IMG/VR virus record: IMGVR_UViG_2585427708_000005
Strand: one strand, 5' to 3'
Origin: a virus
Taxonomy: Duplodnaviria; Heunggongvirae; Uroviricota; Caudoviricetes
DNA length: 64,000 nt
Positions 27,925 to 28,969 of the stretch are shown here, in pieces; the stretch's first letter is position 1; each line of letters begins with the position of its first letter. A model generated the notes under the pieces. It was not told where the DNA came from, searched no databases, and saw only the letters and a list, made by a program, of their open reading frames with translations. The translations under genes were made by a program, and so were the position numbers.

Positions 27925-28752
27925 TTATTTCACCGGAACAAACGGAACAGCGGTATTACTGGTCATATACTGCGGTAATGTACCGTTCCATTTGTTGATC
28001 GCTTCCAAGTCCATAACACCGGGGTTCTGGCGCAGAGCTTCACCACGTAAACGAATGGCATCAGCTTCGGCCTGGGCTTTTGTGCGAATAGCATCAGCCT
28101 GTCCGGCAGCTTCCGCGCGCAGCATGTTGGCCTCTGCTTCACGTTGTTTGACCTCTTGCTCGCGTTGCAGGGTTTTTTGGTTTGCCGTGACTTTGGCGTT
28201 AATACTGTCAATAACTGTTGGCGGGTATTCTGGCTTACCTACATAAGAGAGGCTCATCACCTGAATGCCGATTGGCGTCATTTCTTCCTGAATGTCTTTA
28301 AGGGCTGCATCAAGCAATTCAGATTTGCCACCGTCGATAAATTTGTCGGTGGTCATTTTGCTGGCTAATCGGTTCAGAGCATCTGCAACCTTCTGGCGTA
28401 GATCGGTATCAGTAATATCATCTACACCTTTGCGATAGGTCTGAAATACCGTTGTGACTTTTGCTGGATCAACCTTGTAGGCTACGCCGATGTGGTAACC
28501 AATGGTTGTTCCGTCGCTCATCTGGAAGCTGAACGGCTCATCGTATGTCTTCATTTGCTTAAAGGTCGGGAAGATATAAACTTCAGTATTCAAGCCTGTC
28601 CAGTAGCGACCAACGCCAACTACTTCACCGATACCTTTATCATCCCCCAGCTTATTTACTTTGATCCCTACGTTACCTGGCTCTACCCGATCGCATCCGG
28701 TCAGACATAAAGAACCCAAAATAATCGCTGCACTAATCAACGTTTTTTTCAT
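27925..28752 (-). CDS. plp: SPFH/Band-7 domain lipoprotein
   Basis: 275 aa; lipobox LTGC after the signal peptide; SPFH-like core and Ala/Glu-rich coiled coil. Confidence 0.7.
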   Translation of the reverse strand: MKKTLISAAIILGSLCLTGCDRVEPGNVGIKVNKLGDDKGIGEVVGVGRYWTGLNTEVYIFPTFKQMKTYDEPFSFQMSDGTTIGYHIGVAYKVDPAKVTTVFQTYRKGVDDITDTDLRQKVADALNRLASKMTTDKFIDGGKSELLDAALKDIQEEMTPIGIQVMSLSYVGKPEYPPTVIDSINAKVTANQKTLQREQEVKQREAEANMLRAEAAGQADAIRTKAQAEADAIRLRGEALRQNPGVMDLEAINKWNGTLPQYMTSNTAVPFVPVK

Positions 28753-28969
28753 TAATTAATTTCCTGGTTTTTTCACGAAAAAAGACTACTGCGAAAGCCG
28801 GGTAAATGAGCGCGAGAAGGACTCCCAACAATACAAGTATTGTGCTGTTAGATGAGATCATATTTGGCAAAAGCCAAACATACAGAACCAGTGACACAAT
28901 CAAACAGAGGACGGCATAAATATATAACCGCACCCATAGCGTTCGACATTTGTTCGGATTGTTCTGCAT
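28733..28969 (-). CDS. upl: Small inner-membrane protein upstream of plp
   Basis: 78 aa with two TM helices; overlaps the plp start. Confidence 0.55.
   Translation of the reverse strand: MQNNPNKCRTLWVRLYIYAVLCLIVSLVLYVWLLPNMISSNSTILVLLGVLLALIYPAFAVVFFREKTRKLINEKNVD

Follow-up and report, generated by a model that had tools for sequence, protein, structure and literature searches.

The gene pair and its setting

The window analysed here is a stretch of 64,000 nucleotides from a Caudoviricetes virus (IMG/VR record IMGVR_UViG_2585427708_000005). It is identified as a P1-like phage-plasmid by flanks that are ~99% identical to Escherichia phage RCS47, vB_EcoM-Ro157c2YLVW and several records named 'Punavirus P1'. 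Two open reading frames (ORFs) on its minus strand are the subject of this study: a gene for a 78-amino-acid (aa) protein with two transmembrane (TM) segments, referred to below as the hairpin (28733-28969, recognised from its TM segments and from phrog_1130), and, directly downstream, a gene for a 275-aa SPFH/Band-7 lipoprotein (27925-28752, recognised from Pfam Band_7, phrog_200, an AlphaFold2 (AF2) model and Foldseek). An earlier note on this DNA, made from the letters alone, had described an overlapping gene pair of this kind between tRNAs. Both ORFs were found exactly where it placed them, overlapping by 20 nt. ARAGORN located a tRNA with anticodon CAU on one side (27822-27897) and a cluster of tRNA-Thr, tRNA-Tyr and tRNA-Asn on the other (29843-30089). 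As judged from sequence, the two genes are a real, ancient, mobile and sometimes fused unit.

Conservation and fusion of the pair

In 78 of the 80 IMG/VR contigs that encode the SPFH protein at 92% identity or more, the gene immediately preceding it is the hairpin ORF. The hairpins of these contigs fall into three sequence types, and are far more divergent than the mature SPFH protein. The association is also seen at greater distances, the two genes overlapping or abutting in phages and prophages from several bacterial phyla. In one-genome-per-species data covering several phyla, a hairpin is upstream of the SPFH protein or fused to it at 17 of 20 loci, with carriers among Yersinia, Kluyvera, Pantoea, Sutterella, Dyella, Saprospirales and metagenome-assembled genomes (MAGs) of Leptospirales and Eubacteriaceae. 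Hairpins are found in the virulent phages KpCHEMY26 (N4-like) and 4MG (rV5-like) as well, and in phiP27 an unannotated 62-aa ORF with two TM segments overlaps the start of the SPFH gene.

Fusions of the two proteins occur naturally. An exhaustive search of 1.84 billion representatives retrieved 2836 protein clusters (50% identity) at E ≤ 1e-3 and 215 at E ≤ 1e-30, and about 20 of the top 150 clusters are hairpin-SPFH fusions of 320-390 aa. Across the 19 fusions that were aligned, the Cys of the lipobox is invariant and the Ser of the hairpin loop nearly so. Free hairpins and the N-termini of independent fusions, compared with hhalign on sets with no shared sequences, match with 97.7% probability (E 2e-12). 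PHROG 200, which the window protein matches from position 81, the first 80 positions being those of fused hairpins, thus appears to include fused forms. One fusion, P0001 (347 aa), is a near-identical E. coli variant reading ...KLINEK-TLISAAII... across the junction; it is fused because its A run is one base shorter, which brings the ORFs into frame. Its AF2 model has three N-terminal helices, with a predicted local distance difference test (pLDDT) score of ~80. The pairing goes well beyond a chance arrangement. These data are strong evidence for a functional linkage of hairpin and SPFH protein, and a physical linkage at a stoichiometry of about 1:1 is probable.

The 20-nt overlap in the window lies around a run of seven A residues (28743-28749, minus strand, GAAAAAAAC), with the SPFH frame at +1 relative to the hairpin frame. 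A plausible Shine-Dalgarno sequence precedes each gene. The A7 run at 28743-28749 and an A6 run at 28770-28775, both near the hairpin stop codon at the gene's 3' end, vary among relatives; in other variants the hairpin ends at a TAATG stop-start overlap, including 72-aa forms ending ...REKNQEIN. The run-length variants are candidates for real alleles, sequencing errors or translational slippage sites.

The hairpin protein

Hydropathy gives two TM segments in the 78-aa protein (roughly residues 9-40 and 36-66), in agreement with the two-TM peptide of the earlier note, and its conserved pairing marks it as a genuine partner. Because basic residues are present at both ends and the loop between the segments is short and neutral, an N-in/C-in hairpin topology is suggested. 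The loop motif P35-x-M-I-S39 and G49 are conserved in the window protein; in free-standing hairpins (14 homologues) the first TM segment ends in a P-x-[LMF]-[IVL]-S motif whose Pro and Ser are invariant, and a Gly is found in the second. The protein matches phrog_1130 'membrane protein' (E 6.4e-16). No Pfam family matched it, and neither NfeD (PF01957) nor ClpP was found with Pfam or NCBIfam at E ≤ 0.1.

The hairpin gene is systematically missing from E. coli annotations. In the RefSeq plasmid NZ_CP028125.1, which matches the window at 100% identity over the module, the hairpin gene, upl and plp were all left unannotated by the Prokaryotic Genome Annotation Pipeline (PGAP), and matches in PLSDB and in complete E. 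coli genomes name only an 'SPFH domain-containing protein'.

The SPFH lipoprotein is of the HflK/C-prohibitin type

The 275-aa protein starts with a signal peptide (MKKTLISAAIILGSLCLTGC|DRV) that ends in a lipobox, L-T-G-C, with the Cys at residue 20 and Asp21 at position +2; the stretch MKKTLISAAIILGSLC-LTGC agrees with the pattern [LVI][ASTVI][GAS]C. Cys20 is invariant in 44 diverse homologues, as it is in the fusions. The Pfam Band_7/SPFH profile (PF01145) aligns with residues 22-208 over positions 2-176 of its 176 (E 9.7e-31, 107.6 bits against a cut-off of 23.6), and phrog_200 'lipoprotein' is matched over positions 81-359 of 379 (E 1e-112). With the Band_7 match and the lipobox Cys, the description of the larger protein as an SPFH/Band-7 lipoprotein in the earlier note is borne out.

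The AF2 model (mean pLDDT 89.5) has an SPFH alpha/beta domain (~22-175), a helix at 178-242 and a second helix at 244-254. The long Ala/Glu-rich coiled coil that had been predicted corresponds to the first of these, a single continuous helix of 65 residues rich in Ala, Gln, Glu and Arg. At the C-terminal end the model has a conserved KWNGxLP motif, in which W255, G257 and P260 are invariant or nearly so across the 44 homologues, followed by a beta hairpin (strands 261-270). This cage-type architecture of SPFH domain, long helix and C-terminal segment is present both in the model and in the full-length Foldseek alignments.

Foldseek searches of the PDB return full-length matches to prohibitin (8rrh), HflK/C (7vhq, 7wi3, 9cz2), erlin, stomatin and flotillin, with E values from 2e-14 to 1e-8. 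Prohibitin and HflK/C are the best of these (E 2e-14), the identity to HflK/C in the structural alignments being just 17-19%. Sequence profiles against the PDB give HflK (3e-8), prohibitin-1 (6e-8), QmcA (3e-6) and HflC (7e-6). This refines the earlier note's mention of SPFH/stomatin-type proteins: by both sequence and fold the nearest relatives are the HflK/C-prohibitin clade, in which the SPFH domain is on the periplasmic or intermembrane-space side, and which is closer than the cytoplasm-facing QmcA and stomatin. The HflK and HflC equivalog models of NCBIfam (TIGR01933, TIGR01932, NF008181, NF008259) score only 18.8-24.7 bits against cut-offs of 134-660. The protein is HflK/C-like in fold and orientation, and is not an orthologue of HflK or HflC.

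Anchoring and membrane side

In Enterobacterales, an Asp at position +2 retains a lipoprotein in the inner membrane through Lol avoidance (the '+2 rule'). The window protein reads C-D-R-V at the end of its lipobox, and 103 of 108 close homologues share this Asp, which predicts a lipoprotein retained in the inner membrane. Being exported and having Asp at +2, it is therefore expected on the periplasmic face of that membrane. The Arg at +3 may add to the retention; a literature search for an effect of the +3 residue on Lol avoidance found nothing.

Several abundant enterobacterial clusters (P0071, P0072, P0078, P0079 and P0115-P0118) have Tyr, Trp or Phe in place of the lipobox Cys, as in ...GIIGYDRVEPG, and the P0118 cluster was seen on 175 contigs. 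Since such variants cannot be lipidated, they would be held in the inner membrane by an uncleaved signal anchor, and the swaps would amount to a natural way of exchanging a lipid anchor for a TM anchor. In the model, TM helices tether the fused forms. The invariance of the lipobox Cys in the fusions suggests that signal peptidase II cuts them at this internal site, giving the same two products as the split genes. All of the anchoring modes (lipid, signal anchor and TM fusion) point to the periplasmic face of the inner membrane. This is the side on which HflK/C is found; QmcA and YqiK face the cytoplasm.

An exchangeable cassette with a wide distribution

In alignment with P1, the window is near-identical through position 27906, just past trnI, and again from ~29001. 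The stretch enclosed by these points holds tciA-tciB-tciC in P1 and the hairpin-SPFH pair in the window, giving an exchangeable cassette at 27907-29000 (pairwise alignment, with the P1 and RCS47 annotations). The slot is flanked by trnI and upl, with Oban upstream of it and ban downstream. Of the plasmid records in PLSDB, 189 contain at least 80% of the hairpin-SPFH cassette and 191 contain at least 80% of tciABC. The pair is thus one of two common alleles of this slot, the other being tciABC. In a survey of P1-like phage-plasmids (PMC9603915), tciABC is one of eight hypervariable regions and is described as 'lost' in nearly half of the elements, with the replacement unstated; the hairpin-SPFH module occupies the slot in at least a large share of these.

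Plasmids of E. coli O26 and O111 contain the cassette at 100% identity. A copy is carried by 460 of 5426 complete E. coli genomes (~8%), at 201 plasmid and 310 chromosomal places, including P1-like plasmids and the Shiga toxin (Stx) prophages of Shiga toxin-producing E. coli. In DNA sequence, the mature SPFH part shares 86-87% identity with genes of Stx2-converting phages, phiP27 and P88. The similarity to lambdoid Stx phages falls within 27925-28699 and covers the mature SPFH part only, the signal peptide and hairpin being beyond detection by megablast. Signal peptide and hairpin gene co-vary as a separate divergent block, of which three types are found among close relatives. This mosaic pattern suggests recombination at the junction of signal peptide and mature protein, or faster evolution of the membrane-embedded parts.

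Homologues of the SPFH protein were found in 392 phage records, many of them of virulent phages. The virulent carriers include Schitoviridae, Vequintavirinae, Ounavirinae, Bruynoghevirus, phiCbK-like phages, crAss-like phages and Lak megaphages; a Halorubrum virus also has a homologue. At the phage loci that were inspected, the homologues lie among early, replication and nucleotide-metabolism genes. Distant cellular loci are prophage-like too, with terminase, primase and tail-collar genes nearby.

Operon context and timing

The gene order on the minus strand follows the annotation of P1 and RCS47. It starts from dmt, whose 3' end contains Oban/Pban; a leader and the genes for tRNA-Asn, tRNA-Tyr and tRNA-Thr come next, followed by plp and upl in the opposite orientation, the hairpin and SPFH ORFs, the tRNA(CAU), ban and dbn. 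The tRNA(CAU) directly downstream of the module is trnI of P1, of the tRNA-Ile2 type (tRNA-Ile according to PGAP), and ban (26177-27547, minus strand) encodes a DnaB-like replicative helicase, as annotated in RCS47 and P1. The tRNA cluster upstream, which is also recognised by Rfam, is transcribed in the same direction as the module.

The Pban promoter and the bivalent C1 operator Oban (30744-30771) together span 30742-30771 on the minus strand, and were located by an operator search with 0 and 2 mismatches and from the P1 annotation. The Pban hexamers are TTGCTC (-35, 30770-30765) and TAATAT (-10, 30747-30742), 17 nt apart. A perfect C1 half-site, ATTGCTCTAATAAATTT (30755-30771, minus strand), and a second half-site (30744-30760, plus strand) overlap the dmt stop codon, as annotated for Oban/Pban of P1. 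The earlier note had put the module in the ban operon, under an operator at the dmt 3' end. The operator is indeed present, and membership of the operon is deduced from conservation of Oban/Pban and from colinearity with annotated P1, co-transcription likewise. Pban/Oban is presumed to be the control point of a unit made up of the tRNAs, the module, trnI, ban and dbn. What is said here of Pban, Oban and C1 repression follows the annotation of the P1 GenBank record.

The operator is ~1.8 kb upstream of the pair, and a terminator-like hairpin, the three tRNAs and the opposite-strand upl-plp genes lie in between. The terminator-like feature is a strong GC hairpin (TGCCCATCTTCGGGTGGGCG followed by T7; 30562-30581, minus strand, from a sequence scan) in the Pban leader (30090-30741), ~160 nt downstream of Pban and before the tRNA cluster. 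The corresponding stretch is called a 'dicF-like region' in the P1 record. An Rfam search of the leader for a DicF-like or other RNA returned only tRNAs at the gathering threshold, and noise at E ≤ 1. This terminator-like feature may represent a short leader RNA, or may attenuate transcription of the ban operon. A scan of 27400-31000 for sigma-70-like promoters detected none for the module; this is a weak negative, because the genuine Pban was missed by the same insensitive scan.

The prophage setting that the earlier note had given to the module fits poorly. C1 represses the ban operon of P1 in lysogens, the module has no detected promoter, and homologues are carried by virulent phages. With the ban unit repressed by C1 and homologues in many virulent phages, a role in the lytic phase is likelier than lysogenic conversion.

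A proposed two-piece membrane scaffold

We consider the chances about even that the two ORFs are one functional unit, a mobile phage accessory cassette for a two-piece HflK/C-like membrane scaffold. According to this model, the 275-aa protein would be exported, receive a lipid at Cys20 and be processed by signal peptidase II. The Asp at +2 would then keep it at the inner membrane, its SPFH domain projecting into the periplasm, on the same side as HflK/C. Oligomerisation through the long helix and the C-terminal KWNGxLP/beta segment, as in HflK/C, prohibitin, erlin and stomatin, would give a ring or cage. The ring or cage would probably be assembled early in the lytic cycle, on the periplasmic side of the inner membrane. 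If P1 is a guide, transcription would be from Pban, repressed by C1 in lysogens and switched on early in the lytic cycle. HflK/C protomers supply a TM palisade through their own N-terminal helices; this is missing from the lipid-anchored SPFH protein, and would be supplied by the hairpin, which translational coupling or fusion would keep at a ratio of about 1:1.

What such a cage would do is more speculative. Modulation of membrane proteases and exclusion of superinfecting phages, both raised in the earlier note, are possible roles. It may fence off a patch of the inner membrane and there sequester or modulate an inner-membrane client. FtsH would be the prime candidate, since HflK/C and prohibitins partner FtsH-type proteases. 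Membrane proteins of phage or host could thereby be stabilised during infection, or the membrane as a whole, perhaps with an incidental block to the entry of other phages' DNA. As an alternative to client capture, the cage may stabilise or insulate the membrane.

A broader version of the model is tentative, and on present evidence doubtful. Under it, many unrelated phage families, temperate and virulent, would deploy a self-contained, two-piece, HflK-like periplasmic nanocage early in infection, made from translationally coupled genes or from a precursor that signal peptidase II cuts at an internal lipobox. A patch of membrane would be walled off by the cage to capture FtsH or another client, to exclude competitor DNA, or to blunt abortive-infection effectors that target the membrane. 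If true, this would be a general and previously undescribed phage strategy of membrane compartmentalisation, and the first SPFH cage with TM fence and wall as separate polypeptides.

Several points weigh against the scaffold model. Oligomerisation, contact between hairpin and SPFH protein, and the client are all inferred, and FtsH binding is not transferable by homology because the HflK/HflC equivalog models fall far below cut-off. The distant phage SPFH lipoproteins of DL54, phiEa104 and CcrSwift were found without a recognisable hairpin partner. Homologues from outside Enterobacterales often have Ser, Thr or Gly at +2, which under E. coli rules would send a cleaved lipoprotein to the outer membrane, and because of this variation the localisation rule does not generalise. 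Expression from Pban assumes read-through to the module, because the terminator-like hairpin and antisense upl-plp intervene. The one prophage HflK/C-like protein that has been studied, PM0222 of Pasteurella multocida, a possible relative, is reported in outer-membrane vesicles (PMC9872710). A literature search found no experiment on any member of the subfamily in a phage context, and according to a 2026 paper the reason for the presence of such genes in phage genomes 'remains unclear'.

Alternative roles

An alternative that we regard as unlikely, in spite of several observations in its favour, is that the pair is a module for lysogenic conversion, superinfection exclusion or defence, with which the resident prophage-plasmid protects its lysogen by blocking DNA entry or conferring resistance to colicins or membrane stress, as proposed for tciABC. 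The pair does occupy a recognised hypervariable accessory slot of P1-like elements, and the alternative allele encodes a TerB-like protein that the literature links to tellurite and colicin resistance and to phage inhibition. Small membrane proteins are present in both cassettes, TciB also being a two-TM hairpin (54 aa). The PHROGs category of the hairpin family is 'moron, auxiliary metabolic gene and host takeover', and in phiP27 and Stx phages the pair is near int-xis. However, the module lies within the C1-repressed ban unit with no promoter of its own detected, and it is carried by hundreds of virulent phages that never form lysogens. No defence model of PADLOC-DB v2 matches either protein: the SPFH protein has no match in the scan, and the hairpin only one to PDC-M18B at 12 bits (E 0.023). 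Exclusion exerted during the lytic cycle, in the manner of T4 Imm or Sp, would merge with the scaffold model.

Equally improbable, in our estimate, is a dedicated modulator of FtsH that mimics HflK/C. Here the cage would enclose or compete for FtsH, and so stabilise FtsH-labile phage proteins, tune the choice between lysis and lysogeny, or protect phage membrane proteins. FtsH modulation has a precedent in lambda, where CIII stabilises CII. The closest solved relatives of the window protein, HflK, HflC and the prohibitins, all partner FtsH-type AAA proteases, its predicted periplasmic orientation is that of HflK/C, and the idea has been raised by the authors of other phage genomes. Against this stand the low identity to HflK/C, scores of 23-25 bits with the HflK and HflC equivalog models, whose cut-offs are 134-159, and the presence of the module in virulent phages, which make no lysogeny decision. 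FtsH mimicry would be a special case of the scaffold model, with homology as its support; in that form too it appears unlikely.

A device for lysis timing is much less probable still. The hairpin would then be similar to a class II holin or antiholin, and the SPFH lipoprotein would regulate triggering or guard the membrane from premature holin action. The size and topology of the hairpin (two TM segments, N-in/C-in, charged C-terminus) fit a generic class II holin, and one phage record names a homologue 'RIIB lysis inhibitor'. There is also a very weak PHROG match to a holin family (phrog_565), but at E 0.099 it is not significant. In the inspected loci the genes are among early and replication genes and never beside those for endolysin or spanin. 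With a conserved motif in its periplasmic loop and natural fusions to SPFH, the hairpin looks more like a structural partner than a protein that forms holes. P1, moreover, has its own lysis system, lydA/lydB/lyz. A spanin-like arrangement of inner-membrane protein and lipoprotein was likewise considered and rejected, given the predicted retention in the inner membrane, the large SPFH fold and the lack of linkage to lysis genes.

A serine protease or protease subunit, as the SPFH protein is labelled ('putative' in some cases) in GenBank records of phiP27, Stx phages, RCS47 and Caulobacter phages, can be discounted almost entirely, as Band_7/SPFH is the sole domain, neither protein has a ClpP, NfeD or other protease domain, and RefSeq re-annotation gives 'lipoprotein' or 'SPFH domain-containing protein'. 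The label goes back to an old view of HflK/C as protease subunits.

Other features of the locus

Two features near the module set this element apart from P1. An extra 87-nt tRNA-Tyr (GUA) is found at 29923-30009 on the minus strand, between tRNA-Thr and tRNA-Asn, and is in neither P1 nor RCS47. The flanking trnT and trnA are diverged as well, and the same cluster of three tRNAs is present in the E. coli O26 plasmid pRM10386-1.

The second feature is in dmt (30762-34049, minus strand), which encodes 1095 aa here versus 754 aa in P1. An intein containing a LAGLIDADG homing endonuclease accounts for the additional ~340 residues (~32796-33821; Pfam Hint_2, LAGLIDADG_3 and Intein_splicing). It sits exactly at the catalytic motif of the C5-cytosine methyltransferase part of dmt (...VGGTP / CFTAGH...VVHN / CQAFSIAGL). 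The RCS47 dmt is also 3288 nt long and is annotated just as 'DNA methyltransferase'. The term 'intein' is not mentioned in either of two papers on P1-like phage-plasmids in which it was looked for (PMC6906374, PMC9603915).

Significance and comparison with known systems

The genes themselves are already in databases, with the SPFH protein annotated, sometimes wrongly, and its partner usually missing. In the literature search no paper was found on the hairpin partner, the fusions or a phage function, genome papers offering only speculation, and the classification of prokaryotic SPFH families by Hinderhofer (2009) mentions no lipoprotein or phage subfamily. New here are the evidence for an ancient, mobile and sometimes fused unit, the allelism with tciABC, the predicted HflK-like topology and the argument for a role in the lytic cycle.

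SPFH cages (HflK/C, prohibitin, stomatin, flotillin and erlin) have recently been solved, and their clients and purposes are still debated. If the phage pair forms a cage, it would be a minimal system amenable to genetics, where removing or adding the pair should produce a phage phenotype that can be scored, and it would show what phages gain from remodelling the inner membrane; the finding would matter more with cage and client confirmed. In practice, the slot with its two alleles, the module and tciABC, is useful for typing P1-like phage-plasmids that spread resistance genes. RefSeq annotation lacks the hairpin gene, and many GenBank records still carry the serine protease label for the SPFH protein.

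PM0222 of P. multocida is comparable as a prophage-encoded HflK/C-like SPFH protein that signals via TLR1/2, as is typical of triacylated lipoproteins (PMC9872710). It differs in its reported location in vesicles, has been studied as a virulence factor and is at most a possible member of the same subfamily.

The P1 tciABC genes occupy exactly the same slot of the ban operon, are about equally frequent in P1-like plasmids and include small TM proteins, namely TciB (two-TM hairpin) and TciC (35 aa, one TM), encoded at positions 4202-4473 of the P1 locus (L002). In contrast to the SPFH module, their main protein is TerB-like and cytoplasmic or membrane-associated, and no sequence similarity to the module was noted. 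In either allele, then, small membrane peptides go together with a larger protein of stress or scaffold type.

The SPFH-NfeD operons (QmcA-YbbJ, PDB 8z5g; YqiK-YqiJ; PH1511-PH1510) resemble the module in that an SPFH gene and a gene for a small membrane protein share an operon and are transferred together, and in the solved QmcA-YbbJ complex the partner is inside the cage. However, the partner in the window is a hairpin of the 60-80-aa kind with a P-x-L-I-S loop, without an NfeD OB-fold or ClpP, and the SPFH protein is predicted to be exported, whereas QmcA and YqiK face the cytoplasm.

The cages of prohibitin PHB1/PHB2 and of erlin (PDB 8rrh, 9o9z, 9vvj) are top full-length Foldseek matches and have an equivalent topology, standing on the non-cytoplasmic face of an energy-transducing or ER membrane. 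These hetero-oligomers of eukaryotes are anchored by an N-terminal TM or hydrophobic segment, and no small hairpin partner is present.

The closest likeness is with HflK/HflC of E. coli (PDB 7vhp, 7vhq, 7wi3, 9cz2), which gives the best sequence-profile and fold matches and has the same succession of SPFH domain, long coiled-coil helix, short helix and C-terminal segment, with the SPFH domain in the periplasm. Where HflK/HflC consists of two paralogues, each with an N-terminal TM helix, the module described here has one SPFH protein with a predicted lipid anchor at Cys20, and is borne by phages together with a separate or fused two-TM partner.

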